DNA of 22,200 nt, taken from an uncultured archaeon (GTDB lineage Archaea; Asgardarchaeota; Heimdallarchaeia; Heimdallarchaeales; Heimdallarchaeaceae). Positions within the stretch are counted from its first letter, which is position 1; each line of letters starts with the position of its first letter. Of this stretch, positions 1,562 to 22,134 are shown piece by piece. A program made the translations under genes and the position numbers. Below the pieces are notes generated by a model. It made no database searches. It had not been told where the DNA came from and was given only the letters and a program-made list of their open reading frames with translations. The stretch lies in NCBI GenBank assembly GCA_964534625.1, contig CAZHRF010000046.1:1-22200 (forward strand). The letters run 5' to 3'.

Positions 1562-1729
1562 TTTGGCTAATTAAGCTATTCAGAGACACTATTTCTTCCG
1601 TTTTTATCGATACTTTTTGTCCTTTCGGTATCATAAATTTACAATAATTTGGGGATTTAGTTCATTAATTTTTTATACTTGTATAGTATACAGTTTATTT
1701 GTAGACTTTTTGTAAAATGGTAGATACGT

Positions 1730-2197: not shown

Positions 2198-2223
2198 AAA
2201 AAGAAAACTCAAAAGAATAAAAG

Positions 2224-2240
2224 AAGAGAAATTTATAAAA
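2224..2240 (+). promoter_or_regulatory. Putative archaeal BRE/TATA promoter for ssnA and downstream genes
   Basis: AAGAGAAA-TTTATAAAA with TTTATAAA at 2232-2239, in the gap before ATG 2296. Very similar to the element upstream of the P-type ATPase. Confidence 0.45.
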
Positions 2241-2295
2241 AGAAACAACAAGTGAAACAATAAGGTTAATATCTACCTCTTGTTATTCTTTCTTT

Positions 2296-3594
2296 ATGCA
2301 AAAAGCCATTATTAATGTTAAAATTTTTGATTATGAAACCTATATCGAAAATGGGTTTTGCATTTTTGATGAAAAGATTGTTAAAATAGGTGAAATGAAA
2401 GATTATACCACATTTGAAGGAGCAATAATTGATGGAAAAGGTAAGATTCTTCTTCCTGGTTTAATAAACTTTCATACACATATTTACTCTACATTAGTTA
2501 GAGGGGCTTCATTAGGTCCTTATGATCCCCAAAGTTTTAAAGATATTCTTGAACAACTCTGGTGGAAATTTGATCGAGAATTGACAAATGAATCGATATA
2601 TCATAGTGCAATTATTTATGGACTTGAATCGCTTAGGAATGGTGTAACATCGCTTATTGACCATCATGCTAGCGGTAAAGATATTTTAGGTAGTCTTGAG
2701 AACTTGAAACAAGCCCTTGTTGATGTACTTGGTATGCGAGGGATATTTTGTTTCGAAACAAGCGACCGTTTTGATATTGATGCGTGTATAAAGGAAAATC
2801 TTACAGGACTCAAGTTTGATAGTGCAGATGCTAAAGGAATGTTTGGTTTACATGCTTCTATGAGTTTATCAGACGAAACTTTAAGAAAAGTAAAAACTGT
2901 GATTGGAAAAGCTCCTATGCATACTCATGCAGCTGAAAGTAAAGAAGACGAGGAAGATTCATTGGAAAAATATGGTGTGAGAGTAGTAGAAAGATTCGCT
3001 ATACATGGACTACTTAATCCTGATTCCATCCTTGCCCATTGTGTTCATATAGATGATCACGAAGCTAAGACGGTTAAAGAAAATAAAGCAGTTATAGCCC
3101 TTAATCCAACCAGTAACATGAATAATGCTGTTGGAGGATTCAACATTGAGCTATTCAGAAAATATACTATCCCCATACTTGTTGGTACTGACGGACTTGG
3201 TTCGAATATAGCCAAAGAATGGTCTTATCTTCTATATGCAGGTAAACAGTATATTGATGATGCAAATGGAATCACGTTAGACGAAATCAGAGCACATATA
3301 ATTCGTTCCTATGATTATTTTGGGAGACAAATGGGCATAAAGATAGGTAAAATAAAAAAAGGATATGTAGCGGATCTTTTACTTGTTGATTATACTAATC
3401 CTACACCTATGAATAAAAGTAACGCCTTTGGACATGTATTTTATGGGTTGTTTGACTCTTTCAAACCTTCACATGTATTTGTAAAAGGAAAAGAACTTGT
3501 TAGTGAGTACAAGAGTAAATTTGATGAAAAAGAATTGTATAAAAAAGCTAAAGAGGCTTCCCAATCTTTGTGGAAACGTATAAGTGAGGAATAA
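2296..3594 (+). CDS. ssnA: SsnA-family amidohydrolase (purine-degradation aminohydrolase)
   Basis: PGLINFHTHIYS, ILEQLWWKFDR, GVTSLIDHHASG, FETSDR, GLHAS, HTHAAE, AHCVH, NPTSNMNNAVG and GTDG are characteristic of SsnA. Context with hydA and xdh agrees. Confidence 0.85.
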   Translation: MQKAIINVKIFDYETYIENGFCIFDEKIVKIGEMKDYTTFEGAIIDGKGKILLPGLINFHTHIYSTLVRGASLGPYDPQSFKDILEQLWWKFDRELTNESIYHSAIIYGLESLRNGVTSLIDHHASGKDILGSLENLKQALVDVLGMRGIFCFETSDRFDIDACIKENLTGLKFDSADAKGMFGLHASMSLSDETLRKVKTVIGKAPMHTHAAESKEDEEDSLEKYGVRVVERFAIHGLLNPDSILAHCVHIDDHEAKTVKENKAVIALNPTSNMNNAVGGFNIELFRKYTIPILVGTDGLGSNIAKEWSYLLYAGKQYIDDANGITLDEIRAHIIRSYDYFGRQMGIKIGKIKKGYVADLLLVDYTNPTPMNKSNAFGHVFYGLFDSFKPSHVFVKGKELVSEYKSKFDEKELYKKAKEASQSLWKRISEE

Positions 3595-3598
3595 GCGT

Positions 3599-4693
3599 AT
3601 GAAGAATAATTTATCTGTATCACTTCTTGATGTAACTTTTGATAATCCTCTAGGTCCTGCAGCTGGACCACTTACAGAAGGATTAGACAATATGTCCTTT
3701 TTTAATACTAACATGTGTGGATTTAATACAACAAAAACAATTTCAGTTGAAGGTGCAAAGGTTATTAAGCCATGTATTGCTGCTACACCTTCAAAAGTTT
3801 ATAATTGTGAGCTTTGGTCAGAGTTACATTCGGATATTTGGATAGAAAAGATTCTTCCTACCGTCCATGAAAATAAGCAAAAACCGCTAATTATTTCCGT
3901 GGGCTATCATGAAGAAGACTTCAGATATCTCATCCCTAAACTTGATCCATTTGCTGATATTTTTGAAGTTTCTACGCATTATGTAGAAGAAAAAGAATTG
4001 GCAGGAATTGTACAGAGCATTCGCGAAAATACGTCTAAACCTATTTTTATGAAACTCAGTCCTCATGTCAGCGACTATATAGCTTTTGTTCAAACTGTTT
4101 TAGATGCTGGAGCGTCTGGTATTGTAGCCATTAACTCACTTGGTCCCACCACAGCTATTGATTTGAAAACTCGTTCTATTTTACTTGGTACAGCTAAAAC
4201 TAGAGAAGTATGGTTAAGCGGACCAGCTATTAAGCCTATTGCTCTCAACAGAGTTTACAATATACATAAAAACTTTCCAAAGGTACCTATTATAGGAGTG
4301 GGAGGAATTGAAACAGCTGAGGATGTGATGGAATTCATTCTAGCTGGAGCAGATCTAGTTCAAATGCTTTCTTCAGCTCTAATTAAAGGCAGACAGTTAT
4401 ATGACAGAATAGTCAAAGAGCTACCTAAGAAATTGAATTTTTATGGTTTATCAACGATAGAAGAGATCAGAAAAGTGAGACAAGAAACAATTTTTGATGA
4501 AGGAAAAATACCTAAAAACGATTATCCCACCATAACAAATGAATGCATTATGTGTGGTTTATGTGTCAAAATCTGTCCTGTATCTGCTCTGACGAAAGAA
4601 GAGAAGATTATTGTTGATAAAAACACATGCATTAAATGTGGGCTATGTGAATCACGTTGTCCTAAAGATGCTATTATAGGAGTATTAAAATGA
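3599..4693 (+). CDS. FMN-dependent DHOD/PreA-like oxidoreductase with YgfK-like N-terminal motifs and C-terminal 2x[4Fe-4S] ferredoxin domain
   Basis: NPLGPAAGP, TKT, KPCI, NCELWSE, KLSP, AINS, LSGPAIKP, IGVGGI and AGADLVQ indicate the DHOD TIM barrel. Two CxxCxxCxxxCP motifs. ATG 3599 after GTGAGGA is preferred over GTG 3584. Confidence 0.8.
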   Translation: MKNNLSVSLLDVTFDNPLGPAAGPLTEGLDNMSFFNTNMCGFNTTKTISVEGAKVIKPCIAATPSKVYNCELWSELHSDIWIEKILPTVHENKQKPLIISVGYHEEDFRYLIPKLDPFADIFEVSTHYVEEKELAGIVQSIRENTSKPIFMKLSPHVSDYIAFVQTVLDAGASGIVAINSLGPTTAIDLKTRSILLGTAKTREVWLSGPAIKPIALNRVYNIHKNFPKVPIIGVGGIETAEDVMEFILAGADLVQMLSSALIKGRQLYDRIVKELPKKLNFYGLSTIEEIRKVRQETIFDEGKIPKNDYPTITNECIMCGLCVKICPVSALTKEEKIIVDKNTCIKCGLCESRCPKDAIIGVLK

Positions 4694-5907
4694 CTGACTA
4701 TATTCTGAGATGTATAACTTGTAAGGAAGAATTTATACCTGCACCTGGAAGGTATTTTTGTGATTCTTGTGGTAAAATCAAAGGCACATTAGAAGTTTTG
4801 TATGATTATGATAAAATCAGCAAATTAAACATTGTAAAGAATAGAAATTTTGATAAGAGAGGATCAATGTATCAATTTGATTTCCTTTTACCTACTAAAG
4901 CTAAACTCCATTTAGATACATATGTGGGCGGTAGTCCTCTTTTTAAGTTCGATTTATGTGGATTGAAAGATGTTTTGATAAAATATGATGGTTCCAATCT
5001 CTCTTGCTCTTATAAAGATAGAGCTAGTTCAGTAGCAATAAATAAGGCTATAGATGAAGGGAATGATACCATTATATGTGCTTCAACAGGCAATGCAGCT
5101 TCTTCTTTAGCTATGCTTAATGCCCAAACCACTTTAGATACCTATATCTTTGTTCCTGGAACAATACCTATTGGGAAAAGAACCCAATTAGAGATAGCTG
5201 GAGCTAAAGTTTTTGCTATTGAAGGAATGGCCTATGATGAAGTCTATGATTTTTCTTTAGATATGGCACTAGAAAAAGGATGGTATATCCGCCATGCAGC
5301 CATCAACCCCTACTTGTTGGAAGGAAAGAAAACTGGCGCTTTCGAAGTAATAGTTGAAAATGATTTTGTGGTTCCCGACTATGTTATTGTGAGTGTAGGC
5401 GATGGTACAATTATTAGTTCTCTTTACAAAGGATTCTGGGAATTTAGAGAGATAGGAATAACTGACAAGATGCCTATAATCATAGGCGTTCAAGCTGAAG
5501 GGATTAGTGCAATTAAAGAAGTCTATGAGAAAGGTAAACCTTATACACCTCATCCTATATCGGGAAATACTATAGCAGATTCTATCTCTGTAGGCAATCC
5601 TAGAGATGTGATCAAAGCTTGTACCTATGTTGAAAGGAGCGGAGGTTATTTTATTTCAGTTACAGATGAAGAAATTCTCAAAGGTATAGTTGATCTAGGT
5701 CTGAAGACCGGTATATTTGCTGAACCTGCGGGAGCAGTTTCTTATTGTGGATTGAAAAAACTTATCTATGAGGGTAAGATTAAAGAGTCTGACAAAGTAT
5801 GTATATTCGTAACTGGTAATGGGTTGAAAGATATAAATGCCGTTCAAAATATGATTAATACCCAAACGATAACAACTGAAGAAGTAAAAACGAGGTTCAA
5901 AAAATGA
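4690..5907 (+). CDS. Threonine-synthase-like PLP enzyme (fold type II) with N-terminal CxxC...CxxC
   Basis: SYKDRAS (PLP Lys), CASTGNAASSLA, NPYLLEGKKT, VGDGT, TIADSISVGNP, GIFAEPAGA and TGNGLKD. ATGA overlap with the upstream gene. True substrate uncertain. Confidence 0.8.
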   Translation: MTDYILRCITCKEEFIPAPGRYFCDSCGKIKGTLEVLYDYDKISKLNIVKNRNFDKRGSMYQFDFLLPTKAKLHLDTYVGGSPLFKFDLCGLKDVLIKYDGSNLSCSYKDRASSVAINKAIDEGNDTIICASTGNAASSLAMLNAQTTLDTYIFVPGTIPIGKRTQLEIAGAKVFAIEGMAYDEVYDFSLDMALEKGWYIRHAAINPYLLEGKKTGAFEVIVENDFVVPDYVIVSVGDGTIISSLYKGFWEFREIGITDKMPIIIGVQAEGISAIKEVYEKGKPYTPHPISGNTIADSISVGNPRDVIKACTYVERSGGYFISVTDEEILKGIVDLGLKTGIFAEPAGAVSYCGLKKLIYEGKIKESDKVCIFVTGNGLKDINAVQNMINTQTITTEEVKTRFKK

Positions 5908-7289
5908 AGTTTATTCTTAACAATAATCAAATTGTAGAAACAGATGTAGCAGAAAGTACTGCTACTTTAGATTTTTTACGGAGAAAAGGGATTAGGGGAG
6001 TAAAAGAAGGTTGTCATGAAGGCGATTGTGGTGCGTGCATGGTTCTAATGGGAGAATTAGAAGGGAGAGACCTAACCTATAAAGCTGTCACATCTTGTCT
6101 TCTACCAATAGGCGAAATAGGTGGAAAGCATATTGTCACTATTGAAGGACTAAATTATGATGATAACCTCAATCTTATTCAGAATGAAATAGTTTCAGAA
6201 GGCGGAAGTCAATGCGGATTTTGCACTCCTGGATTCATCATTAGTTTGACTGCCTTTTTCTTGAATGGTGATCTGAAGAAAGAAAATATTATGACCGCAA
6301 TGGAAAGCAATATTTGTAGATGTACTGGGTATGCTTCTATAATAAGAGCTACAGAGACTGTTTTTGATCAATTGTCTTTTTTAAAAGGCAAAAAAGCTGA
6401 AGAACGCATACCAATATTAATAGAAAAGGAAGTAATTCCAGCTTATTTTTCTGAAATAAAAGAACAACTGCTAGTATTGGATGGAAAGCAGAAAGGGTTA
6501 GAAGAAAAAGAAGGAACTTATGTAGCAGGAGGAACAGACTTGTTTGTACAAAACAGAGATCTGAAAGATCCTCTTTTTTTGTCTCGTTTAGATGAAGATT
6601 TACGGAAAACATGGGAAGAAGAAGATTATATCTATATTGGTGCTTTAGCTAATGCAGAAACCATACGTAATTCTAGAGAATTAAATGAAATTTTACCAGT
6701 TAAAGAAGATTTGAAGAGATTTGCAGTCTTATCAATACGAAATCGTGCTACTATTGGTGGAAACATTGTCAATGCCTCGCCTATAGGTGATCTAACTATT
6801 TATTTCTTGGCTTTAAACCCCGATATATGCTTGAGTTCTGAAGAAGGAAATAGAATCTTTAAGCTTAAAAATTTCTTTAAAGATTACAAAGTATTAGATC
6901 TCAAAAATAAAGAAATTGTTCAGTGGATTAGAATAAAGAAAGAGAAACGTTTATTCAATTTTGAGAAAGTAGCTAAACGGCATAGAATGGATATAGCTAG
7001 TGTTAATACTGCGATATCTTTAAAACTTGAAAAAGGGTGCATCATTAACCCCCATATATCAGCTGGAGGTGTAGGTTGTATCCCAATTTATTTGTCTAAA
7101 ACAGTAGAGTTTCTCGAAGGTAAAGAGGTTACTCCAGAAGTAATTCGTGAAGCTGTTAGAATAGCCAATACAGAAATTTCACCGATAGATGACGTTAGAG
7201 GAACAGCAGAATATAAACGTTTATTATTAAGACAGTTGCTTCTAGCACATTTCATAGAATTATTCCCTGAAATGGAGGAGAGATTATGA
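5904..7289 (+). CDS. xdhA: Xanthine dehydrogenase small subunit (2x[2Fe-2S] + FAD)
   Basis: GVKEGCHEGDCGAC...SCL, QCGFCTPG...NICRCTGY, VAGGTDL, RNRATIGGNIVNASPIGD, PIDDVRGTAEYK. ATGA overlap with the upstream gene. Confidence 0.92.
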   Translation: MKFILNNNQIVETDVAESTATLDFLRRKGIRGVKEGCHEGDCGACMVLMGELEGRDLTYKAVTSCLLPIGEIGGKHIVTIEGLNYDDNLNLIQNEIVSEGGSQCGFCTPGFIISLTAFFLNGDLKKENIMTAMESNICRCTGYASIIRATETVFDQLSFLKGKKAEERIPILIEKEVIPAYFSEIKEQLLVLDGKQKGLEEKEGTYVAGGTDLFVQNRDLKDPLFLSRLDEDLRKTWEEEDYIYIGALANAETIRNSRELNEILPVKEDLKRFAVLSIRNRATIGGNIVNASPIGDLTIYFLALNPDICLSSEEGNRIFKLKNFFKDYKVLDLKNKEIVQWIRIKKEKRLFNFEKVAKRHRMDIASVNTAISLKLEKGCIINPHISAGGVGCIPIYLSKTVEFLEGKEVTPEVIREAVRIANTEISPIDDVRGTAEYKRLLLRQLLLAHFIELFPEMEERL

Positions 7290-9580
7290 AAGAAGATTTC
7301 AATGATTTATTACCTCCACATACTCGTGGAGAATCAGTTTTTGTTGATGACATCAATGAACCTAAAAATGTATTACATGCTGTAGTATTTACTTCAGATA
7401 TAGCTCATGGAAAAATAACTAAATTAGATATTACTAACGCAACTAAGAGTAAAGGAGTAGTTAAAGTTCTAACTGCTACTGATATACCCGGTATTAACCA
7501 AATTGGCGGGATTATCCAAGATGAAGAATTACTTGCTGAAGAAACAGTTGATTTCATAGGTCAACCTATTGCTGTCATTTTAGCAGAAACAAAAGAAAAT
7601 GGAAAAAAGGCTGTAGAAAAAATTCAAGTTGAGTATAAAGAATTAAAACCTGTTTTTGATCCACGAGAGGCAGTTAGGAAAGGTTTACTTATTGCCCCCT
7701 CGAGAACGTTTACTTTAGGTGATGTAGATGCTACTTGGTCAAAATGTGAGCATATAATAGAAGGGAGAGTTGATTCAGGTGGGCAAGAACATCTTTATCT
7801 TGAAACACAAAGTGCAATAGCCTATCCCGGAGAAGAGAAAAGGATAACTATCTATTCTGCCACGCAATCTCCTACTTATGTTCAAAGACATAGTGCAAAT
7901 GTGCTTGGTTGTGAAATGAATTTAATTGAAGTTGATGTAAAGCGTTTGGGTGGAGCATTTGGTGGAAAAGAAGACCAAGCTACTGCATGGGCGGTTATTT
8001 GTGCTCTTGGAACGTATCATACAAACAGACCCGTTAAAATTAATTTAGATCGTCATGAAGATATGCAAGTGACTGGTAAACGTCATCCATATTCTACTGA
8101 TTACAAATTGGGATTAGATAAAGAAGGAAAGATTTTAGCCTTTGAAGCTGAATATTACCAAGATGCGGGTGCAGCTGCTGATTTATCAACAGCTATCTTA
8201 GAAAGAACACTCTTTCACGTTACTAATGCGTACTATATCCCTAATGTCCGAGCTACGGGATATTCTGCTAAAACTAATATTACTCCAAACACTGCTTTCA
8301 GGGGATTTGGCGGCCCACAAGCAATGTTTGTAATAGAATGTGCATTATCAAAAGCAGCTGATCAAGTGGGAATACCTAAAGAAGTATTGCAAGAAAAAAA
8401 TCTTTTGGTAGAAGGTGATCAATTCCCATATGGAATGCATGTGAAAAAAAGTAATGCTAGACGAAGTTTTAAAGAAGCACTAGAGTATGCGCAGTTTGAA
8501 GAATTAAAGAAAAAAATTGACAAGTACAATTCTACTCATCGTTTCATGAAAAAAGGATTTTCAATTATGCCTATTTGTTTTGGAATCTCTTTCACTTCAA
8601 CATTTTTAAATCAAGCAGGAGCACTTGTACATGTTTATACTGATGGGAGCGTGAGTGTAAGTACAGCAGCAGTTGAAATGGGGCAAGGCGTTAATATGAA
8701 ACTTAAATCAGTTGCATCTCATTTTCTATCAATCAATGTTGATCGCATACGTATAGAAAGTACAAACACTACCCGAATAGCAAACACTTCACCAACCGCT
8801 GCTTCTTCAGGAGCTGATTTAAATGGTAAAGCTGTAGAAATAGCTTGTTCTAGCCTTATTGAAAGGTTAAAAAATGTTGCTGCAGAAAAATTAGGCTTGG
8901 ATAATGTTGAGTTTATTAATGAGGTAGTCTGTAAGTCAAATGGAGAAGAAACTGAGCTGAAATGGGAACAACTGATTGATATAGCATATAAACAAAGAGT
9001 AAATCTTTCTTCTCACGCTTTTTATGCCACACCTAAAATTCATTTCTCAAGAGAAGAAGAAAAAGGTGAACCTTTTGCCTATCATGTTTTTGGAACAGCT
9101 ATAACTGAAGTAATAGTAGACTGTCTCAGAGGTCGATATTTCATTGATAGAGTGCACATTGTTCATGATGCGGGAAAAAGTATCAATGAGTTAATAGACA
9201 GAGGACAAGTGGAAGGAGGATTAGTTCAAGGAATAGGCTGGATGACGTTGGAAGAACTCATGTGGAACGAGAAAGGTAAACTTTGTTCTAATAATCTTGC
9301 TACTTACAAAGTACCTGATTTGCATTTTAGTGCGTTTGATATGAACATTAAGTTTCTAGAAGATGCAGAAAATCCTCATGCGGTAATGAAAAGCAAAGCA
9401 ATAGGTGAACCACCATTTATGTATGGTATAGGAACATATTTTGCTTTGAAAGATGCAGCACGATCTTTTAATGATAAGAAAGAATGGAAATACACTTCAC
9501 CGTTGACACCAGAAAGACTATTACTTTATCTATATGAATTAGATGAAATAAATAATGAAGAGATAGGGTATTGTAATTAG
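7286..9580 (+). CDS. xdhB: Xanthine dehydrogenase molybdopterin-binding subunit
   Basis: GGQEHLYLE, RLGGAFGGKE, ERTLFH, AFRGFGGPQ, EMGQG, TSPTAASSG, DRGQVEGG and KAIGEPP. ATGA overlap with xdhA. Confidence 0.93.
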   Translation: MKEDFNDLLPPHTRGESVFVDDINEPKNVLHAVVFTSDIAHGKITKLDITNATKSKGVVKVLTATDIPGINQIGGIIQDEELLAEETVDFIGQPIAVILAETKENGKKAVEKIQVEYKELKPVFDPREAVRKGLLIAPSRTFTLGDVDATWSKCEHIIEGRVDSGGQEHLYLETQSAIAYPGEEKRITIYSATQSPTYVQRHSANVLGCEMNLIEVDVKRLGGAFGGKEDQATAWAVICALGTYHTNRPVKINLDRHEDMQVTGKRHPYSTDYKLGLDKEGKILAFEAEYYQDAGAAADLSTAILERTLFHVTNAYYIPNVRATGYSAKTNITPNTAFRGFGGPQAMFVIECALSKAADQVGIPKEVLQEKNLLVEGDQFPYGMHVKKSNARRSFKEALEYAQFEELKKKIDKYNSTHRFMKKGFSIMPICFGISFTSTFLNQAGALVHVYTDGSVSVSTAAVEMGQGVNMKLKSVASHFLSINVDRIRIESTNTTRIANTSPTAASSGADLNGKAVEIACSSLIERLKNVAAEKLGLDNVEFINEVVCKSNGEETELKWEQLIDIAYKQRVNLSSHAFYATPKIHFSREEEKGEPFAYHVFGTAITEVIVDCLRGRYFIDRVHIVHDAGKSINELIDRGQVEGGLVQGIGWMTLEELMWNEKGKLCSNNLATYKVPDLHFSAFDMNIKFLEDAENPHAVMKSKAIGEPPFMYGIGTYFALKDAARSFNDKKEWKYTSPLTPERLLLYLYELDEINNEEIGYCN

Positions 9581-9595
9581 TAGAGAAAGATAAAC

Positions 9596-10594
9596 ATGAA
9601 TAAAATAAGATTTTGGAAAAAAATACTTGGGATATTAGACCAAGACGAAACAGTAGTATTAGTTGTAATAATTGACCAAATTGGGTCAGCTCCTAATTCA
9701 CCTGGGGCAAAAATGTATGTGGCTCAACAAGAGTCCCATGGAACCGTAGGTGGAGGAATTTCTGAACATGATCTAATAGAAAAAGCTAAAGAAATGATTA
9801 GACTAGGCTCTGTTTCAGTAGAAAAAATCTACATGAAGCATGAAGAAGGGAAAAGTGAGGGTCATTCTGGGATGATATGCTCTGGTTCACAGACTTTTGC
9901 ATTAATACCATTATCGCAACACGATCTTACCACGGTAGAAAAAGTACTTATTTCTTATCAATCAAAAAAACCAGGAAAACTGTCTATAAATAAAGAAGGG
10001 ATACATTTCATTTTCAATAATTCATTAAAAACTATGCATAGAGATTACAAAGAAGGAGAAGGGTGGGTTTATGAAGAAACTACAGGGATTGAAAATAATC
10101 TTTTCATAATAGGAGGTGGACATGTATCATTATCATTATCTAAAGTAGTTAGTAATTTAGGTTTCCATATTACTGTTATTGATGACAGAAAAGATCTCTC
10201 AACCATGGTAAACAACACATACGCCCATGAAAAACGAATTATAGATGATTACGATATTATTGAGCAACTAATTCCGGAAGGAGAAAATATCTATGTATGT
10301 ATAATGACTTTTGGGCATCAACAAGATGAAACAGTATTGGAGAACCTAATCTATAAAAAAGTTAGATACATAGGAATGATGGCATCTAAGGCAAAGAAAA
10401 AGCAGATTTTTTCTAATCTAATCCAGAGAGGTATACCCGTTAAATTGTTAGATGCAGTTTACTCCCCTATAGGCGTAAGTATCAAAAGCATTACTCCAGA
10501 CGAGATAGCAATCAGTATTGCTGCTGAATTAATAAAAGTTAAAAACAATAGCTCAACTCATGCCCAAGCAATAATCAACCTACATGAAAAGTAA
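9596..10594 (+). CDS. xdhC: XdhC/CoxI-family Moco insertion accessory protein
   Basis: GSAPNSPGAKM, GTVGGG, MICSG, Rossmann IIGGGHV, IDDR, YIGMM, SPIG and TPDEIAISIAAE. Directly follows xdhB. Confidence 0.9.
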   Translation: MNKIRFWKKILGILDQDETVVLVVIIDQIGSAPNSPGAKMYVAQQESHGTVGGGISEHDLIEKAKEMIRLGSVSVEKIYMKHEEGKSEGHSGMICSGSQTFALIPLSQHDLTTVEKVLISYQSKKPGKLSINKEGIHFIFNNSLKTMHRDYKEGEGWVYEETTGIENNLFIIGGGHVSLSLSKVVSNLGFHITVIDDRKDLSTMVNNTYAHEKRIIDDYDIIEQLIPEGENIYVCIMTFGHQQDETVLENLIYKKVRYIGMMASKAKKKQIFSNLIQRGIPVKLLDAVYSPIGVSIKSITPDEIAISIAAELIKVKNNSSTHAQAIINLHEK

Positions 10595-12247: not shown

Positions 12248-12880
12248 TTATCTCCTTCTTCTCTTTTTTTTCTTATCCTTTTCGAGTTCTTTCTTTGATA
12301 TAAGAAATCCAACGATCGTTAGGATTAGTGAATAAATAGCATAAATTGGTATATTGCTATCATAGTTAGCCCCAAAAATGTTTGTAAAACTAAAGAAGGC
12401 TACAACACTTAATATACACGAACCCAAAAGGATTACGTCTGCTATAAGCGAGGTTATTCCACCTGATACGATACATAATACTAAATATAGAATAATTAGA
12501 AAAGGCGTTACCAAAGTGATTGTCCCACTAGTAGAAATATCTGTTGCCTTACTTAATCCAATTTCTATACCCATCCACACCCACATACTTACAAAAGAGT
12601 GTGGGTCATCAGTTTCGGTATCCATTATCCACATAATAGCATAATATTCGGGATGATAAATGTTAAGCGGGTTTTCTGAAAAAGTTTCTTCGATATATTC
12701 ATTTCTTCCTGTTGCGCTAAACCATTTGAAACTACTTGGTTTAAGATGCATTCCATCATCATCAAAGGCGGCTACACCAATTGGTGTCATGGCGTAGGAA
12801 GTTTCTATAGAATTTAACGTACTTAATCCTAATGGCATTATAAAAAGCAAAATTCCTAATACTACTTTAAGCATTTTCAT
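12248..12880 (-). CDS. Hypothetical membrane protein (N-terminal hydrophobic/signal segment, about 3 C-terminal TM helices, polybasic tail)
   Basis: 210-aa ORF; hydrophobic N-terminus and C-terminal segments; ends KKKKRRRR; TTTATATA box 24 nt upstream of the ATG on the - strand. Confidence 0.75.
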   Translation of the reverse strand: MKMLKVVLGILLFIMPLGLSTLNSIETSYAMTPIGVAAFDDDGMHLKPSSFKWFSATGRNEYIEETFSENPLNIYHPEYYAIMWIMDTETDDPHSFVSMWVWMGIEIGLSKATDISTSGTITLVTPFLIILYLVLCIVSGGITSLIADVILLGSCILSVVAFFSFTNIFGANYDSNIPIYAIYSLILTIVGFLISKKELEKDKKKKRRRR

Positions 12881-14016: not shown

Positions 14017-16923
14017 TTATTGTGCCACATAAACATCATAAACTTCGAAATCAAGCAATATCTCGAAATCACCTATCTGTACGTTAAGCCATCCGTTACG
14101 CATATCTATGTACAAGTTATCTTTTTCTAATTGGTCATTCAATCTGATGCCATTTTCTAAATCCGTTCCAACAAAGGTATGATCTAAGCTGTATTCCAAT
14201 TCAGATGGTAGGTTTGCATTTACATCTGTTTTATTAATGGTTGTGAGATAAATGTTGTATTTGGCTGCATAAGAAAGAGTTAGATATGTTGATGAATCGG
14301 GATCATCAAAATAGATATCACCGCCCCAGTCTAAAAGGGTTATATCGAATGTCAAAGGATTTATCACATTCACGCTTAAATCTACTGTGTAAGATAGAGA
14401 TATAGTTCCTGTCATACTTACTGTAATATCAATATTTATGCTATTTACAATAATTGATTGCACAAATTGCTCCAATCCTATTAGTAAGACAGTTGCATTG
14501 ATAGGTAACTCTAAAGGCGTAATAATACCTGAAAAGTCGCTTGTAAATGTACCTTGTATATCTATAATAACATTATTTCCTCCGACATAGTTGGATAAGA
14601 AGAGCTCTAGGTTAGTTCTATTTACATCAGCTGTAAGTATTCCATCTACTGTGATGAAATTATCTCCTGTTACTAAACTTAATGTGGTAATTGTAGCATT
14701 ACCAATCCTACAATCTAAATAGAATAAGTTCAAGGTTATATTCTCTAGATCAAATGTAAAATCAACAGGATTAACCATAGTTATATTCAATTGTATTTCA
14801 ATTGTATCTGCTGTAGTATTAGATATACCCAATTCATCTATAGATATATCAAAATCCAGATTTGGTAGTTTTACGTCTGAAGTGTATTTTTTAATAATCG
14901 TTTCAAAGATTGCCACATCAACATCAACCGATACACAATCCAAAGATAGATAAATATCATTACCTTGTAAATATTCTGTCAACAATTCATCCAACAATGA
15001 AGCATTGGAAACGGTAAAAGAAACATTCATAACATAGGTTTTAATACCAGGTAACACATTTAGAGTGGGTAATGTAATATTTCCAAGTATATTTTCTCCA
15101 TAGGATGTTTGAAGTTTTAGATTATCAATAGTTACGGTACTACTGGAAGGATTAGTTATATTAACAGCTACCTCGATTGTAAGAGAATCTGTGCTGGCAT
15201 TAACTATCCTTAAATCAATTACCATGATATCAACTGGGCTAATAGGTGGTAATACAATAGCTACTGAATAGCCACTAATTATTGTGCTTAACAGACTATC
15301 ATCTGATGCCAATCCAATAACGGTGATATTAATCTGTGAACCATTAAGATACTCTCCAATTAGTGTATTAATCAAGTTATTATCATCGGGTATTAATTCA
15401 AAAGCTCTAGTTACATTACTGTATCCTGTTTCTAATGTCAAATTAGTTATCTGAATAGTTCCTAATGTTACCGCTTCATCATCCCAATAAACCTCGAAAG
15501 AAGCATTGTTTAATTCCACTTGAACAGAAGTTGGATTAAAGAAAGCTACATCAGCTTGGATAAAAACTGATTCAGTTGTTGAATTCAAAATACCAACATT
15601 ATATACCGATATTTCAAATGTTCCAGAACTTTGAAAGGTTATAACTTGTTGCCACCCGGCTAATAATGAAGAAAGGCTATTTCCCGTTTCTGCTCCTTTA
15701 ACTATTAACTCAATCTTATTTCCGTCTAAATATGTAGATGCAAGATTTTTCAAAACTTGATTATCCTCTGGAGTTAAGGTAAATTCGGTTATGTAGATAT
15801 TACTACCCGATACCAAAACTAATCCAGGTATTACTAAAGTGCCTAGTTTTTGACTCTCATATATTACATCTAACAGTATCTCCGATATATTACCATAAAC
15901 ATTTGTTGGGTTATGAATCGTTATATTGGTATTTCCAACAATTGAATCGGTCAAAAGTTCTTCCAAAGAAAATTGATTCATCTCAACGGTAACTAAGCCT
16001 TCTCCAGCCAATACTGTGTCAAAAGTTATTTGATTTAAGGATTGATCTAGCAATCCTGTAACATCTATTTTATACTGTCCAACAACACTAATTGTGCTGT
16101 TAATATCGTTTAAAAAATTGCTTACAAGTAACTGTGAAGCTGTTAGATTACTAAGCCTAAAACCTAAGTAAGTAAAATAACTGTTAACTCCCTTTTTCAA
16201 TTCTAAGGTTTCAAATGAGATATTTCCTATGAAATTCCCTTCGAAAGTTAAATTGAAGCCTACATTGGTTAGAGTTGCCTCAACCTCAGAAGGATTATTC
16301 ACATCCACATAAACCTTTGTGTTAAGAACAGCATTAAGAGCTTCAAATTTTTTCTCAGATTCTGTTTCATAAGTGTTGTTCAATAATTCTATCTTTGAAA
16401 TTTTCATATCTTTAAAATTATCCATTCCAGAAAGAGTCAACTCTTTACTAACTGCTACATCCGATTTGGCATTGAGTAAGCCTACTTTGGCTTTGATAAT
16501 AGTTTCTCCATCAATTTGTAAAGAAAGAGTTTTTAATGCAACATAATCGCTTACAAAATCATTGAATATTTCTTGAGATATAGGCGTTAAGGTAGTATTA
16601 AGATGAAAAATATTCGATCCTGATTTTAAATCCAGAGCTGGAATAGTAACATGCCCTAGAATGCTTTCACCATAAGTCAAAGACACAGTAAACGCTTCCA
16701 TTTCTGCAGAGCGTTTATCTGGATTTTCAATAGAAATGTTTAATCCCAAATCAAGTGATGAGTTGGTTGTTTCAAGAACGTCAATGGAAATTATATCCAA
16801 AGTTGCTTGTTCTACTGTGTTTTGTATTTGTGTCTTTATTATCACTTGAGCAAATATTGCTCCAATTACAATTAAAGATATAATTGAAGCTACTATAATT
16901 AGTGTTAAATTCTTTTTTTTCAA
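14017..16923 (-). CDS. Type II membrane-anchored protein with seven tandem LEA_2 / DUF3712 (Tag1)-like repeats
   Basis: MKKKN plus one TM helix, then seven ~125-143 aa units of the form hxhxNP-x~16-Y/F-x~4-hG-xh-xh-xxL-xL-xxG(xN)...xxYLxG. Acidic and rich in N-x-S/T sequons. Confidence 0.8.
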   Translation of the reverse strand: MKKKNLTLIIVASIISLIVIGAIFAQVIIKTQIQNTVEQATLDIISIDVLETTNSSLDLGLNISIENPDKRSAEMEAFTVSLTYGESILGHVTIPALDLKSGSNIFHLNTTLTPISQEIFNDFVSDYVALKTLSLQIDGETIIKAKVGLLNAKSDVAVSKELTLSGMDNFKDMKISKIELLNNTYETESEKKFEALNAVLNTKVYVDVNNPSEVEATLTNVGFNLTFEGNFIGNISFETLELKKGVNSYFTYLGFRLSNLTASQLLVSNFLNDINSTISVVGQYKIDVTGLLDQSLNQITFDTVLAGEGLVTVEMNQFSLEELLTDSIVGNTNITIHNPTNVYGNISEILLDVIYESQKLGTLVIPGLVLVSGSNIYITEFTLTPEDNQVLKNLASTYLDGNKIELIVKGAETGNSLSSLLAGWQQVITFQSSGTFEISVYNVGILNSTTESVFIQADVAFFNPTSVQVELNNASFEVYWDDEAVTLGTIQITNLTLETGYSNVTRAFELIPDDNNLINTLIGEYLNGSQINITVIGLASDDSLLSTIISGYSVAIVLPPISPVDIMVIDLRIVNASTDSLTIEVAVNITNPSSSTVTIDNLKLQTSYGENILGNITLPTLNVLPGIKTYVMNVSFTVSNASLLDELLTEYLQGNDIYLSLDCVSVDVDVAIFETIIKKYTSDVKLPNLDFDISIDELGISNTTADTIEIQLNITMVNPVDFTFDLENITLNLFYLDCRIGNATITTLSLVTGDNFITVDGILTADVNRTNLELFLSNYVGGNNVIIDIQGTFTSDFSGIITPLELPINATVLLIGLEQFVQSIIVNSINIDITVSMTGTISLSYTVDLSVNVINPLTFDITLLDWGGDIYFDDPDSSTYLTLSYAAKYNIYLTTINKTDVNANLPSELEYSLDHTFVGTDLENGIRLNDQLEKDNLYIDMRNGWLNVQIGDFEILLDFEVYDVYVAQ
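14356..16730 (-). repeat. Protein-level tandem repeat array (7 units)
   Basis: NP anchors of the units lie near 16721, 16292, 15908, 15533, 15149, 14768 and 14357, spaced about 375-430 nt apart. Diverged at DNA level. Confidence 0.7.
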
Positions 16924-17013: not shown

Positions 17014-17892
17014 TTATTTTAACTGTTTAATGGTTTCAAAACAAATTTTCTCTTTAGTAATATTAGGAATATTAGGGATTTCGTCACTATAAAATATGAA
17101 TAGCCCATTTCCAAGCATAATCTGAGAAATCTCAATTGCTTTATTGGAATATTTTTTGTAAAAAGCTTTCACTTTTTTTGTAGCCAAATTTGTTTCTAAA
17201 CTAAACCTTTGTGCCAACTTTACAAAATTTGTTACAGTAGGATCTTTAACGAATTCTTGGTTAATTTTGGTACCTGTATAATTAATGGTCTTTTTCCATT
17301 TTTCATTTTTTATAACATGTCCTGTAGGTATTTTTCCAAAAGATGCTGTGGCTATTTGATATTCTTTATCAACTGTCATAGGAAAGGTTTTTCCCCTTCC
17401 TGGGGCTCCTTCGCTTGTTCGGTACTCATAACCACCTTGATATAGCCCAATAATATCTCCCAATCCGCCTCCCCCAAGGATTTCAGCTTGATGAGCAATA
17501 GAAAAAATATCTTGTTTTGGCAGTTTAAGATGATATAAACTGTTCAAACATAAAGAAGTACCAAGCGCACCAGCTGCACTTGCTCCAAAACCAGAAGATA
17601 AAGGGACATCAAAAGAATGAAAAACAGATATGGGTCTAGTTAAATTAAATTGGGAATAAAAGATTTTAATTGTATTGAGACTAACTTCAGCCTGTTTTAA
17701 AGGTATTTCATGCTCATTAAAATATATGTGGTGTTTAGTATCCGAAGAATATTTCACACTAGTTGTAACACCACGTGAAATGTTAAAACCTGCTCCTCGT
17801 GAACCTTTATGCAAAAGGGATGTACTCTCGCTATGTATGGTAAAAAAACCAGTAATATGAGAGGCGACCCACCATGTAGTTATGGTTTTCAT
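17014..17892 (-). CDS. Archaeal pantoate kinase (GHMP kinase family, CoA biosynthesis)
   Basis: SHITGFF, GSRGAG, PLSSGFGASAAGALG (GHMP ATP loop), AHQAEI...GGLGD, GAPG and MLG. TTTAAAT box about 25 nt upstream (17917-17923, - strand). Confidence 0.88.
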   Translation of the reverse strand: MKTITTWWVASHITGFFTIHSESTSLLHKGSRGAGFNISRGVTTSVKYSSDTKHHIYFNEHEIPLKQAEVSLNTIKIFYSQFNLTRPISVFHSFDVPLSSGFGASAAGALGTSLCLNSLYHLKLPKQDIFSIAHQAEILGGGGLGDIIGLYQGGYEYRTSEGAPGRGKTFPMTVDKEYQIATASFGKIPTGHVIKNEKWKKTINYTGTKINQEFVKDPTVTNFVKLAQRFSLETNLATKKVKAFYKKYSNKAIEISQIMLGNGLFIFYSDEIPNIPNITKEKICFETIKQLK

Positions 17893-18052
17893 ACATTGAA
17901 TACAGAAATGAGCGAGATTTAAATTTTATCGTGGCTTTAAAGATTAATGATTATGACTGAGTTAGTATGAAAATAGAGGAAAAAAAGTGCATATGAGAAG
18001 TCACTTATCTCAGAGTGGTGAGAGATACGAAATTACTTTATTATGATAAACA

Positions 18053-20995
18053 TCAAAAATATTTGTTATTTTTCCTTACTAATTTTTTGAATATTTCGAC
18101 AAAGATTAAGCTAAGTGATGTTGCAAAGATAACTATAAGCCAATCACCTAAATTTAATGCAATCAACTCAAAATTTGCTCCAATTGACTCAAATATTAGC
18201 TGTATTTGGGTTATGTACATTAATATTACAAATAGTACAGGTACTAATGTTACACAGAATAATGCAAACAGGCTAAAATCTTCTTTAAACTGTTGGAAAA
18301 GGGACATATTCATTCTTCTTATACTTAATACTATAAAGCTCTCAGAAAAAAGAACTACCGCTAGGTACATTGTTCTAGCTTTGGCATGGTACATGTGATG
18401 TGGATCTAAGAATGAGTTGGATTGATCACTAAAGGTAGGAATAATGCCTGAATAGTTTGTCGTTTTAAGTGGAATAATCCCTGAATACGCAAACAAAAAT
18501 ACAAAACCAGCTGAAAGAGCCATTGAAAGGACCATAATGATTAATACTCCAATGTATTGTTTTGTAAAAATAGATTCATTGTCACGCGATGGATAATCCA
18601 TGATATCTTTTGCTGTTTTATTGAAAATAATAGCTAAAGGTGGGATATCGTGCACTGAAATGATTAGAACTGCACGCTGAATATTGTTTATGAGTGTAAA
18701 GTCTACAATAAAACTACTAATAAAATAGACTAATGCTTCTGCTATATTTATTGAGATGAAAAATAAAACCATTAAACGTATCCTTTCAAATAATCCTCTC
18801 CCTTCTCTAATACCAAGAACTGTACTCACAAAACTATCGTCAGCAATAATTATATCTGAGGCTTGTTTAGCAACATCAGTACCTTCCATACCCATAGCTA
18901 TTCCTACATCTGCTTTAGCAAGTGCCAAAGCATCATTAACGCCGTCACCAGTCATAGCTGTCATTCGATCTTTTTCTTCATATTTTTCTATAATGAATTG
19001 TTTATGTTGGGGAGAAACACGAGCGAAAATACGTGTATTAAAAAACTGTTCCTCAGATAAGTTTTTGATATCTTTTCCTTCAACAGCTTTTTCATTCTTG
19101 CCAATAATACCTACTTTTCTGCCAATAGATTCGGCAGTAAGGCGTGAATCACCTGTTATCATGATTGTATTAACCTTAGCTCTTTGACACAAATTAACAG
19201 AATCCTTAACACCTGGTCTAGGTGGGTCTAACATACATACAAAACCATTGTATACTAAATTATTCTCAATATCATCACGGTTTTTAGAGGTTATTTCTTG
19301 ATCGATTCTATATGCTAATGAAATAACTCGATATCCTACGCTGGCAAACTTATTTGCATAGGTAAGAATTTGTGCTTTCTTTTCTTGGGACAACTTTTCT
19401 ATATTATCTGGGCCACCTACATATGAGCAAAGGTTGAGAACGGTTTCAGTCGCGCCTTTGGTAAACAGATAGTATTTGTTTTGTGATTTGAAGAGTCGGC
19501 TCATACGTTTAATTGAAGAATCAAAAGGATAATCATACACTATTTCAAATTTTTCTTTTATTTTTAATTCTTTTTCTTCTAATCCTGATTTATTAAATAG
19601 AGCTAGAAAGGCACCATCAGTTGGATCACCAGTAGTACGCCATGTTACTTGTTCAGGTCTAGAATCAACATATACTTCCTCCACTATTAACTGAGCGTCA
19701 TTGTTTAGCATTCCCCCTATTAGCAAATGTTCGAGTGAAGTACCTGGAAGAAATATTTTGATACTATCAGGAACATGCATACCATTGGGTTCTAAGGGTG
19801 GTTCAACTGCATCATCGAGAGGATAAATAATACCCTCATTACTATAGCCTTTACCACTTACGCCATATAAAGCATTGGTATCCCAGACACGCTGAATGGT
19901 CATTTGGTTTGTTGTAATGGTGCCTGTTTTATCGGTGCATAAAATAGAACATCTACCAAGGGTTTCTATGCTTGAGAGATTTCTAATTATGACGTTATCT
20001 TTAGCCATTGATAGAGCACCAGTTAATAATATAATGGCTGTAAGGATTGGGATCATAATGGGCATCATGCTCATACCTGTTGTAATAGCATTGACAATCT
20101 CTTCTAAATAATTTTCAAGACTTGATCCTGTTCTTATATGTATAACAGTTTTAAAGGCAATATTACTGATAAGAAAGAGTAAAATAATAGCTCCCAATCC
20201 TTTAGCTAATTCGTTTATTTTCGCTCGAATGGGTATGTCATTTACACCAATTTCTTGTAATTCTTGAGATAAAGTGCCTAATTCGGTGTATGCACCAGTA
20301 TTAGTGCATAAAGCCAGAACTTTTCCTGATTCAATATATGTCCCTAGATAAAGCATGTTCTTTCGTTCAGAAATAGGCGTGTCATTTTGCAAAACTATTG
20401 TCGGGTTGTCAGTTTTTGCTACTGCCCCACTTTCTCCTGTTAATGAAGATTCATTGACTAAACAGTTATAGGCTTGAAGAATTCTCGCATCTGCAGGAAC
20501 TCGATCCCCTTGACTGAGTTGTAAAAGATCTCCCGGTACAACTTCTGTTGCTTTTATTTCTTGTATCATAGCATCTCGGATAACTGTAGTTGTGGGAGCT
20601 GAGAGTCTTTCTAAAGCATCAAGTTTAAATTTGGCACGTATTTGCTGAAAAATAGCAAAAAAGAAGGTAATAATTATATTACCTATCCACATCCAACTTT
20701 GGCTTAGACTTGATGGAATCCAGATGCCTAAAAACATGAGTAATAAACTAAGAATAAGATAGATATTTATTAGCCAGTTAAATAAAGGGGCTAGATAAAT
20801 CTTCCAGATAGAACTTTTAACCAGTGGAATTTCGTTATGTCCATATCTGGCTAACCTACGATCAGCTTCAAATTCTGTTATGCCTATTTTTAGATCTGAA
20901 GAAACAGCATCACATGTTTGTTCAATAGACATAGAGTGAGCAGGAAGCCTTTTTTGTTTTTGTCTTTTGGACACTTTATTCTTAGTTTTTATCAA
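18053..20995 (-). CDS. P-type ATPase, P2A/SERCA-like scaffold with non-canonical transmembrane substrate site
   Basis: VPGD, GDRVPAD, LTGES, DKTGT (phospho-Asp), GDPTD, FDSSIKRMS, KGATE, DPPR, MITGD, FARVSP and TGDGVND. About 10 TM helices. TTG start with GAGGT upstream. M4 reads PIMIP instead of PEGLP. Confidence 0.9.
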   Translation of the reverse strand: MIKTKNKVSKRQKQKRLPAHSMSIEQTCDAVSSDLKIGITEFEADRRLARYGHNEIPLVKSSIWKIYLAPLFNWLINIYLILSLLLMFLGIWIPSSLSQSWMWIGNIIITFFFAIFQQIRAKFKLDALERLSAPTTTVIRDAMIQEIKATEVVPGDLLQLSQGDRVPADARILQAYNCLVNESSLTGESGAVAKTDNPTIVLQNDTPISERKNMLYLGTYIESGKVLALCTNTGAYTELGTLSQELQEIGVNDIPIRAKINELAKGLGAIILLFLISNIAFKTVIHIRTGSSLENYLEEIVNAITTGMSMMPIMIPILTAIILLTGALSMAKDNVIIRNLSSIETLGRCSILCTDKTGTITTNQMTIQRVWDTNALYGVSGKGYSNEGIIYPLDDAVEPPLEPNGMHVPDSIKIFLPGTSLEHLLIGGMLNNDAQLIVEEVYVDSRPEQVTWRTTGDPTDGAFLALFNKSGLEEKELKIKEKFEIVYDYPFDSSIKRMSRLFKSQNKYYLFTKGATETVLNLCSYVGGPDNIEKLSQEKKAQILTYANKFASVGYRVISLAYRIDQEITSKNRDDIENNLVYNGFVCMLDPPRPGVKDSVNLCQRAKVNTIMITGDSRLTAESIGRKVGIIGKNEKAVEGKDIKNLSEEQFFNTRIFARVSPQHKQFIIEKYEEKDRMTAMTGDGVNDALALAKADVGIAMGMEGTDVAKQASDIIIADDSFVSTVLGIREGRGLFERIRLMVLFFISINIAEALVYFISSFIVDFTLINNIQRAVLIISVHDIPPLAIIFNKTAKDIMDYPSRDNESIFTKQYIGVLIIMVLSMALSAGFVFLFAYSGIIPLKTTNYSGIIPTFSDQSNSFLDPHHMYHAKARTMYLAVVLFSESFIVLSIRRMNMSLFQQFKEDFSLFALFCVTLVPVLFVILMYITQIQLIFESIGANFELIALNLGDWLIVIFATSLSLIFVEIFKKLVRKNNKYF

Positions 20996-21030
20996 TTTGA
21001 AACCTCAAATCACTGAACTTAATCTATTGT

Positions 21031-21046
21031 TTTATAAAATTTCTTT
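21031..21046 (-). promoter_or_regulatory. Putative BRE/TATA promoter of the P-type ATPase
   Basis: On the - strand AAAGAAAT-TTTATAAA, about 35 nt upstream of the TTG, followed by a GAGGT ribosome-binding site. Confidence 0.5.
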
Positions 21047-21168: not shown

Positions 21169-22134
21169 TTAAAGTATTTTTTTTAATTCTAGTAAAGCTA
21201 TTTCAGCAGTTAGTTTATTTTTTTCTAATTTTTGAATCAAATCTGTTAAAGCAGCGTTTATTGGGAGGTTTTTGCTCTGTTCTTTACCTAAATGCACTAT
21301 TTCTGCATTTAGATAGCCTATCTCTGTTTTGTTTCCTCTTTGAATATCTTGTAACATGCTGCACTTGTTTTCTTTAGTTAGCTCTATTACAGTTAGAATT
21401 CTTTTTTTTGTCTCTAACAAAGAAATATTGAGATTATCGGGGACAACTTTTAGTATCTCTAGAATTATTTTTTCTGAGAGTTTTTCTAAAGACTTGTGTT
21501 GAAAGATTTCTCCGTTTGTTAACCCAGTTAAAGCCCCTAGGGGATTGATAACGCAATTAATTATGGTTTTAAGCCAGATAGATCTTTCAATATTAGGAGA
21601 ATATGTGGTTTTTAAGTCTATATTGTTACATAACTCAACCCAATAGCTTGTTTTTTCTTTTTGCTTATGATTTATATGTCCTATCTCTGTTTCTCCTTTA
21701 CCTTTTTCATAGATGTGATCTGTATTTATTCTCGTAGCTCCCATCGATGTGATAGCTCTATTGATAACAAAATCTTTTGATAGATTAAGGAAAGGACGTT
21801 CTATGTTTAACCCGTTTTGCATGAGTAAAAGAGTAGCATTTTCTTCCAGATAAGGTTCAAGGTATGTAGAGACAGTTTTATTATTATAACTTTTTGTGCA
21901 TATAATACATCTATTAAAAATAAATTTCTTAGGTAAATCATAGTATACTTCAGGAGTAAATCTTTTCATATCACTTTTGAGAAGCTTGACATAAAGACCA
22001 TTTTTATTTATTATTTTATATCCTCTCTCAGAGGTAAGACAGATCACAGAATACCCTTTGTTTTTTAGTCTAGCATACAAAATTGATCCTATGGCTCCTA
22101 AACCTACAAGTAAAACTGAATCTTCTTTGCTCAC
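21169..22134 (-). CDS. panE: 2-dehydropantoate 2-reductase (ketopantoate reductase)
   Basis: VGLGAIGS Rossmann motif, CTKSY, MQNGL, IWLKTIINCVINPL, SMLQDI and TEIGYLN. GTG start with AAACTTTTAT about 25 nt upstream. Confidence 0.9.
   Translation of the reverse strand: MSKEDSVLLVGLGAIGSILYARLKNKGYSVICLTSERGYKIINKNGLYVKLLKSDMKRFTPEVYYDLPKKFIFNRCIICTKSYNNKTVSTYLEPYLEENATLLLMQNGLNIERPFLNLSKDFVINRAITSMGATRINTDHIYEKGKGETEIGHINHKQKEKTSYWVELCNNIDLKTTYSPNIERSIWLKTIINCVINPLGALTGLTNGEIFQHKSLEKLSEKIILEILKVVPDNLNISLLETKKRILTVIELTKENKCSMLQDIQRGNKTEIGYLNAEIVHLGKEQSKNLPINAALTDLIQKLEKNKLTAEIALLELKKIL

Follow-up and report, generated by a model that had tools for sequence, protein, structure and literature searches.

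A P-type ATPase with a rebuilt ion pocket in a Heimdallarchaeaceae archaeon and its Asgard relatives

RESULTS

The locus and its P-type ATPase gene

The window analyzed here is a stretch of 22,200 nucleotides (positions 1 to 22,200, forward strand, of contig CAZHRF010000046.1, assembly GCA_964534625.1) from an uncultured Asgard archaeon of the Heimdallarchaeaceae. On its minus strand, a gene for a P-type ATPase (the window ATPase, or window copy when it is set beside its relatives) lies between genes for a 2-dehydropantoate 2-reductase (PanE) and a GHMP kinase (Table 1). Judged by its sequence, the protein is a member of a conserved family and not a lone degenerate copy, and the residue pattern described below is far beyond chance, since it is conserved over the whole family.

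The window ATPase has the full P2 architecture of Pfam domains (Cation_ATPase_N, E1-E2_ATPase, Cation_ATPase, Hydrolase (HAD), and Cation_ATPase_C). A sequence-only reading of this DNA had considered the catalytic machinery intact, and TGES, DKTGT, DPPR, TGD, and GDGVND were indeed all found in the translation. In the family alignment (A1), G187 and E188 of TGES are invariant, and conservation of T186 and S189 reaches 90% or more; the window copy retains all invariant columns, catalytic residues included. After GDGVND, the family has its own ALAL where other pumps have APAL, with L690 in 96% of the members versus a proline in 37 of 40 PEGL pumps (named after their M4 motif). The AlphaFold2 (AF2) model (predicted local distance difference test [pLDDT], 89.6; predicted template modeling score [pTM], 0.86) has a SERCA-like helical layout in which, as in ion pumps, helix M4 is unwound at residues 310-314 and M6 is broken at residues 782-786. 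A search of the ESM Atlas with the window ATPase returned generic cation-ATPase clusters only. Two antisense open reading frames (ORFs) on the plus strand inside the gene (18015-18398 and 18756-19187) had no Pfam match, look spurious, and were treated as such.

Table 1. Features of the window ATPase gene and its immediate neighbors (residue numbers are those of the window ATPase)
Feature	Positions	Strand	Residues	Basis or SERCA counterpart
P-type ATPase gene	18053..20995	-		Open 980-aa frame, TTG start; Pfam domains and AF2 model
M2 segment Asn106 to Thr110	20666..20680	-	106-110	Family Asn110 replaced by Thr; Asn one helical turn earlier
TGES, A-domain dephosphorylation motif	20429-20440	-	186-189	Translation
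M4 motif PIMIP	20048..20062	-	312-316	Ile313 = E309; Met314 = G310
DKTGT phosphorylation motif, phospho-Asp D355	19919-19933	-	355-359	Translation; invariant in A1
DPPR		-	590-593	Translation
TGD		-	614-616	Translation
GDGVND hinge motif	18932-18949	-	683-688	Translation
M5 SINIAE	18737..18754	-	748-753	Asn750 = N768; Glu753 = E771
M6 QRAVLIISVHDIPP	18638..18679	-	773-786	Ile778 = N796; Val781 = T799; His782 = D800; Asp783 = G801
M8 Glu885, in FSES	18341..18343	-	885	E908
TATA-like TTTTATAAAA (21030-21039) and Shine-Dalgarno-like GAGGT (21002-21006), 6 nt before TTG	21002..21039	-		Read from sequence
2-Dehydropantoate 2-reductase PanE, upstream neighbor	21169..22134	-		Pfam ApbA/ApbA_C; TIGR00745 214 bits, above cut-off
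GHMP kinase, best match archaeal pantoate kinase, downstream neighbor	17014..17892	-		NF041122 140 bits, NF040725 134 bits, both below cut-off

A conserved family of Asgard pumps

Relatives of the window ATPase, at 40-57% identity, were found in 5.8 billion proteins and 1.8 billion cluster representatives. They come from Heimdall-, Hod-, Thor-, Odin-, Loki/Prometheo-, and Kariarchaeota, together with one Bathyarchaeia entry, and about 145 of them are full length, with an M4 motif that mostly reads P-(I/L/V)-N-I-P. All matches above 459 bits carry P-(I/L/V/F/W)-(N/S/T/A)-(I/L/F)-(P/V/I) at M4, and below this score almost all carry PEGL, the exceptions being a full-length sequence with PWSFP (P0161, 447 bits) and a PINIP protein that is truncated (P0204, 410 bits). 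The sequence-only reading had allowed that the close homologs might all be PEGL pumps and the window copy a solitary aberration; PEGL occurs in 0 of the 145 members.

Several residues of the presumptive ion pocket are conserved in the family. Glu753 of M5 is present in 145/145 members and Asn750 in 141/145, the M6 His (His782) in 144/145, Asn110 of M2 in 143/145, and Glu885 of M8 in 118/145. Position 314 in M4 is Asn in 116 members, Ser in 24, Thr in 2, and Ala in 2, and is Met in the window copy only. When the P-I-x-I-P and M6 His-Asp signatures singled out by the sequence-only reading were checked across the family, the His proved nearly universal and PINIP the norm at M4, but the Asp, although truly present in the window ATPase one residue past the His (Asp783), was found in 1/145 members and is no family trait. 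Of the residues that mark the clade, the window ATPase has the hydrophobic residue at the position of SERCA E309 (Ile313), His782, and Glu753, and it departs at two, with Met314 in place of the M4 Asn and Thr110 in place of Asn110.

In a maximum-likelihood tree, the family forms a monophyletic clade apart from the PEGL pumps (Shimodaira-Hasegawa-like approximate likelihood ratio test [SH-aLRT], 100), and the deepest branches of this clade are also Promethearchaeota. The window copy, 40-58% identical to members of the clade, groups within its Heimdallarchaeaceae subclade. A member is present in 95 of 151 sampled Asgard genomes and in 55 of the 72 high-quality ones. A head-to-tail tandem pair is common in one Asgard family, f13 (G147:C12:8351-14175, G040:C32:125900-131727, G129:C86:1967-7788, and other f13 genomes), with one PINIP and one PINLP copy that belong to different deep subclades of the tree.

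Ion-binding residues compared with those of SERCA

The residue correspondences in Table 1 were obtained by aligning a profile of 84 family members over its full length to SERCA2, and a MAFFT alignment with 40 PEGL pumps agrees with them. The translation confirmed both the PIMI string at 20051-20062 and the spacing reported for it, the first M4 proline, P312, preceding the phospho-Asp D355 by 43 residues; the profile also sets Ile313 on SERCA E309, as had been proposed. For M6, the sequence-only reading had used an ungapped alignment in which I, V, and H take the places of N796, T799, and D800. This alignment is upheld, because the family profile and MAFFT are both free of gaps there and P785 meets the conserved M6 proline of SERCA2. 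The retention of N768 and E771 in M5 and of the M8 Glu was likewise recovered, as N750, E753, and E885.

The site II ligands of SERCA are thus replaced in the window ATPase (E309 by Ile, N796 by Ile, and D800 by His), with N768, E771, and E908 kept, and the earlier judgment that this is no conventional Ca2+ pump stands on the loss of these ligands. In the clade overall, E309 is replaced by Ile, Leu, or Val, N796 by a hydrophobic residue or Ser, and D800 by His. SERCA E109 and E113 lie in the M2 stalk near the cytoplasmic ion entry, and both are replaced by Gln (or Gln/Thr) family-wide. Four methionines (M308, M310, M311, and M314) surround the M4 break in the window copy. A His-rich patch in the L7/8 loop (DPHHMYH) was considered as a clue and dropped, as it is confined to the window copy and not conserved.

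Comparison with P4 flippases

The sequence-only reading had taken Ile at the Glu309 position as the hallmark of lipid flippases and had suggested a P2-to-P4-like transition. The corresponding alternative is that the window ATPase transports a lipid or organic substrate, that it has converged on or is ancestral to the eukaryotic P4 flippases, and that the M4 Ile serves as a hydrophobic gate. P4 flippases such as ATP8A2 and Drs2p do share an Ile at the E309-equivalent of the unwound M4, the PISIP of sister paralogs recalls their PISL, site II is erased here, the M2 stalk has lost its acidic residues throughout the family, and the host is an Asgard archaeon, with P4 pumps otherwise found only in eukaryotes (PMC10654040).

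On the other side, the PISL of P4 flippases goes with DGET and not with TGES, as the sequence-only reading had itself recognized (PMC4937031), and the window ATPase has TGES. P3 (P3A) proton pumps such as AHA2 likewise have Ile or Val where SERCA has E309 (PMC4937031), and fungal ENA Na+ pumps have IPAS at M4 (NcENA1, PMC10779151), so Ile at this position is not a flippase hallmark and a nonacidic residue there does not imply a lipid substrate. In the tree, the PIS, PIT, PIA, and PIM variants occur only in a single Heimdallarchaeaceae clade, around which the sequences have PIN; PIS and PIM arose inside this clade, in a family whose usual motif is P-I-N-I-P, which makes the likeness to PISL a late local variant. 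P4 pumps are also not known to have the second M4 proline, which the window copy retains along with the M5 Asn and Glu.

Scores of curated hidden Markov models, with PEGL pumps of the same genome as controls, stood in for a tree with the named P-type subfamilies. With the P4 model TIGR01652 (cut-off, 431 bits), the window ATPase scores 100 bits and family members score 89-123 bits, compared with 78-107 bits for the three PEGL pumps and a fourth P2A-like protein (L006) of the same genome; there is no excess similarity over P2 pumps. The P4-specific N- and C-terminal Pfam domains (PhoLip_ATPase_N/C) were not found in the window ATPase. The Foldseek top 50 consists of SERCA, SPCA1, LMCA1, and Na,K-ATPase only, with no P4 or P5 chains. 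P4A pumps need a CDC50 partner, and CDC50 (PF03381) was not matched in this 90%-complete genome, a search that lacks a positive control since the control genomes also gave no match. Taken together, these results do not sustain the flippase-like label; on sequence grounds, the link of the window ATPase to lipid flippases is a single Ile, and we regard a flippase as quite unlikely.

Likeness to other P-type ATPases

The P2A Ca2+-ATPases (LMCA1 [PDB 6zhf/9euq], SERCA1/2, and SPCA1/PMR1) are the best sequence and structure matches of the window ATPase and have the same domains; the family profile scores 711 bits with LMCA1, 676 with SERCA2, 675 with SPCA1, and 590 with Na,K-ATPase (NKA). TGES, DKTGT, and GDGVND are common to these pumps and the window ATPase, as are the M5 Asn and Glu and the M8 Glu in the case of SERCA. 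They differ in that the window ATPase lacks PEGL (Glu replaced by Ile) and has I/V/H for N796/T799/D800, and in that its clade keeps site-I-type residues only. None of the curated subfamily cut-offs is reached, the best scores being 415 versus 798 bits with TIGR01522 (PMR1-type) and 398 versus 703 with TIGR01116 (SERCA-type), about half in each case.

P3A H+-ATPases (AHA2 and Pma1) have a conserved M2 Asn that faces the M6 proton acceptor in AHA2, and the family combines N110 with H782; these pumps also carry an M5 Arg. At the E309 position they resemble the window ATPase, with Ile or Val (PMC4937031). In contrast to the window ATPase, with its M6 His and M5 Asn/Glu, they use an M6 Asp as the proton acceptor (PMC10654040); TIGR01647 reaches 299 bits against a cut-off of 615, and the window copy is without N110.

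The P2D ENA Na+/K+ efflux ATPases have a P2 scaffold and a nonacidic E309 position, like the family. Their model, TIGR01523, gives 373-417 bits with the family, about equal to its SERCA-type score and below the 645-bit cut-off, and ENA pumps are eukaryotic, retain an essential M6 Asp (D860), and have another M5 signature. Two more distant systems, neither of them a close relative, offer precedents. CtpE (P6) has a rebuilt M6 without the M6 Asp (PMC10654040), yet keeps PEGL, unlike the family, and in sCoaT (P1B-4) a His is the internal counter-ion (PMC10654040), a precedent for a pocket His within another topology and with an SPC motif.

The window copy and its paralogs

The genome encodes three paralogs of the family, with PIMIP (the window copy), PISIP (contig 27; G000:C27:33940-36843), and PIAIP (contig 90; G000:C90:2923-5844) at M4, and each belongs to a different subclade within the Heimdallarchaeaceae clade. 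In the tree, PITIP proteins from another genus (57-58% identity) are the sister group of the window copy, whose terminal branch (0.46) is unremarkable beside that of a sister paralog (0.42). The three paralogs differ at the third residue of the M4 motif (M, S, and A) and at the residue following the M6 His (D, T, and F), as would be expected if these positions tuned specificity.

The window copy is the sole holder among the 145 members of Met314, Asp783, Asn106, Thr110, and Ala320 (in place of Thr320), all of which lie in M2, M4, or M6. The loss of Asn314 is common to its subclade, and that of Asn110 is unique to the window copy. It deviates at 9 of the 159 columns with a conservation of 90% or more (median, 3), and 4 of these 9 are in core helices, which in most of its close relatives are free of such deviations.

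Asp783 raises the alternative that the window copy has regained a site for a divalent hard cation (Ca2+, Mn2+, or Mg2+), with Asp783 taking the part of D800 along with E753, E885, and N750, all of which are there. Asp783 adjoins the D800 equivalent in the unwound part of M6, and a pairwise phmmer alignment with LMCA1 opens a one-residue gap that pairs it with the M6 Asp, a Ca2+ ligand. This pairing is not a family feature, because a single member has the residue; the gap-free alignments put Asp783 on G801 and not on D800, and the E309 and N796 positions are still hydrophobic. Known single-Ca2+ pumps, moreover, keep site II and not site I (PMC4937031). By analogy with these pumps Ca2+ is unlikely as the ion of the family, and a regained hard-cation site in the window copy is, in our view, unlikely as well.

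Besides the three family paralogs, the genome encodes three PEGL(P/A)-type P2 pumps, L006, and a P1B-type (heavy-metal) pump with a CPC motif. The three PEGL pumps and L006 speak against a need for a further Ca2+ site, and with them present, Ca2+ handling is independent of the window ATPase. L006 itself (G000:C2:23621-26467; 959 aa; TIGR01522, 580 bits) has no canonical D[KR]TGT string, and its phosphorylation motif may be altered.

Genomic setting

The PanE, ATPase, and GHMP kinase genes lie on the same strand, with spacers of 173 bp between PanE and the ATPase and 160 bp between the ATPase and the kinase. In 10 related genomes (loci L082-L092), PanE and the kinase abut directly, so the ATPase gene has been inserted into the pair in the present lineage. 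PanB is convergent beside the kinase in 7 of these 10 genomes, and partial PanB matches stand at the locus edge in 2 more. No direct or inverted repeats were found flanking the ATPase gene, and insertion by a mobile element was set aside for this reason. The gene likely has its own, putative expression signals, with the TATA-like and Shine-Dalgarno-like elements listed in Table 1 upstream and a T-tract 3' of its stop codon.

This setting bears on the alternative that the window copy is a decaying or nontransporting extra paralog, whose pocket came under relaxed selection after duplication and the move to the pan locus and whose ATPase activity is uncoupled or regulatory. The protein is one of three paralogs, carries five substitutions, each seen in it alone, at pocket positions that are conserved elsewhere in the family, has 9 deviations at conserved columns versus a median of 3 in close kin, and occupies a derived position that splits the PanE-pantoate kinase pair. 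On the other hand, its 980 codons are uninterrupted, the invariant family columns and catalytic residues are all retained, the terminal branch length is close to that of the sister paralog, and promoter and ribosome-binding signals of its own are plausible. We hold decay to be very unlikely.

In a neighborhood survey of 40 loci from at least nine Asgard families, in which ORFs were clustered, synteny was at the lineage level only, and the neighborhood was abandoned as a substrate clue. In an unrelated Asgard family, f10, the ATPase ortholog is followed downstream by a same-strand PanB in 10/10 loci (L047-L050, L066-L069, and L077-L078). The pump family thus has two independent links to pantoate/coenzyme A (CoA) genes, the split PanE-kinase pair and the PanB of f10, for which we offer no explanation. 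Some f10 genomes have a 661-aa protein between the pump and PanB (L047:10925-12910, plus strand) with a weak match to E3 UFM1-ligase (PF09743). The sole PanB of the present genome is at the edge of contig 65 (G000:C65:80-856, minus strand; L080), in an orientation that would suit a putative junction with the right-hand end of the window contig, just past PanE.

Other genes of the window

From 224 to 10594 on the plus strand, the window has a same-strand gene run that resembles a purine/pyrimidine breakdown cluster and is a possible source of beta-alanine. Its members are two amidohydrolases, a GNAT acetyltransferase, a DHO_dh plus 4Fe-4S protein (dihydropyrimidine dehydrogenase-like), a pyridoxal phosphate (PLP) enzyme, the FAD/2Fe-2S and molybdopterin subunits of a xanthine dehydrogenase, and XdhC. 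On the minus strand, 14017-16923 encodes a protein of 968 aa that carries DUF3712 and LEA_2 (late embryogenesis abundant) domains and has no NCBIfam match; both families are best known from eukaryotes. A 210-aa ORF (12248-12880, minus strand) has a subthreshold match to TMEM208/SND2 (20 bits, E = 6e-4), which Pfam describes as SRP (signal recognition particle)-independent targeting protein 2, and it may be an Asgard homolog of a eukaryotic signature protein.

DISCUSSION

Based on the family, the pocket residues, and the fold, we propose that the window ATPase is a functional P-type ATPase of a sister clade to P2A and that it pumps, at a single site, a cation that is not Ca2+, a proposal that we consider probable, with a good deal of room for doubt. 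As a whole, this reading makes the clade an Asgard-centered and as yet uncharacterized sister group of the prokaryotic P2A pumps, which is the best explanation we have for its sequences. The family membership of the window ATPase, its residue correspondences, its fold, and the uniqueness of its pocket changes are observations; the transport, the ion, and the direction that we suggest are inferred from them. The window ATPase would run an ordinary E1/E2 phosphoenzyme (Post-Albers) cycle, in each turn of which one small cation other than Ca2+ would move through a single pocket. Asn and Glu from M5, His from M6, Glu from M8, carbonyls in the unwound part of M4, and, in most members, the M4 Asn would build this pocket.

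As to the cation, our best single guess, a tentative one, falls on a divalent transition metal, for example Mn2+, Fe2+, or Zn2+, which we favor because two carboxylates, an imidazole, and amides would suit it best. H+ would come second and with less likelihood, in which case Asn, His, and Glu might relay protons in a way comparable to the Asp acceptor and its Asn partner in the P3A pumps; Na+ or K+ would come third and appears doubtful. The window copy probably differs from its two sister paralogs in ion preference, and such a difference would stem from its remodeled pocket (Met314, Asp783, Asn106 for Asn110, and Ala320).

Several points weigh against this proposal. The sequence does not reveal the ion, and among the 40 surveyed loci no family-wide conserved gene neighbor hints at a substrate. 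A His is unusual for hard cations, yet it fits an H+ relay or a built-in counter-ion equally well, and if it were a counter-ion, the canonical site might bind nothing. The pocket changes of the window copy are seen in one sequence, with no close ortholog and with the next relative 57-58% identical, and the enrichment of its deviations in core helices is only suggestive (Fisher P = 0.059). Relaxed selection on its pocket may be another source of these changes.

A bolder view is that the clade is a new P-type subfamily whose substrate is outside the range of the characterized P2 pumps, that the three paralogs have split specificities between them, and that the tie to pantoate/CoA genes is functional. 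The substrate might then be a transition metal held in a Glu-His-Glu pocket on a P2 scaffold, or might not be a cation at all. We consider this view possible but not likely.

Our search of the literature found no paper describing the clade or its M4 motif, Palmgren's 2023 review has nothing on the clade, and on Asgard P-type pumps we found nothing beyond the generic "putative Ca2+ ATPase" TC 3.A.3.2.21, the only name used for them in a transportome survey (PMC7997004). The sequence-only reading had expected automated annotation to miss the rebuilt pocket, and the relatives are in fact named "Ca2+-transporting ATPase" or "cation-translocating P-type ATPase" in their sources. What is new here for the window paralog is the remodeling of its own pocket and its insertion into the pan locus.

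Ion-site chemistry defines the subfamilies of P-type ATPases. One new family, P6, has been added since the classifications of the 1998 era, and the M6 Asp has been called omnipresent in Ca2+ efflux pumps (PMC10654040). The present findings have no bearing for now on the origin of eukaryotic flippases. They describe a clade that is widespread and conserved among the archaea most closely related to eukaryotes and in which the P2 engine is kept, site II is erased, and the M6 Asp is replaced by His. Identifying its substrate would extend the rules that tie pocket residues to specificity, and would correct a "Ca2+-ATPase" label that is applied systematically and on which arguments for Ca2+ signaling in Asgard archaea have been built (PMC7997004).

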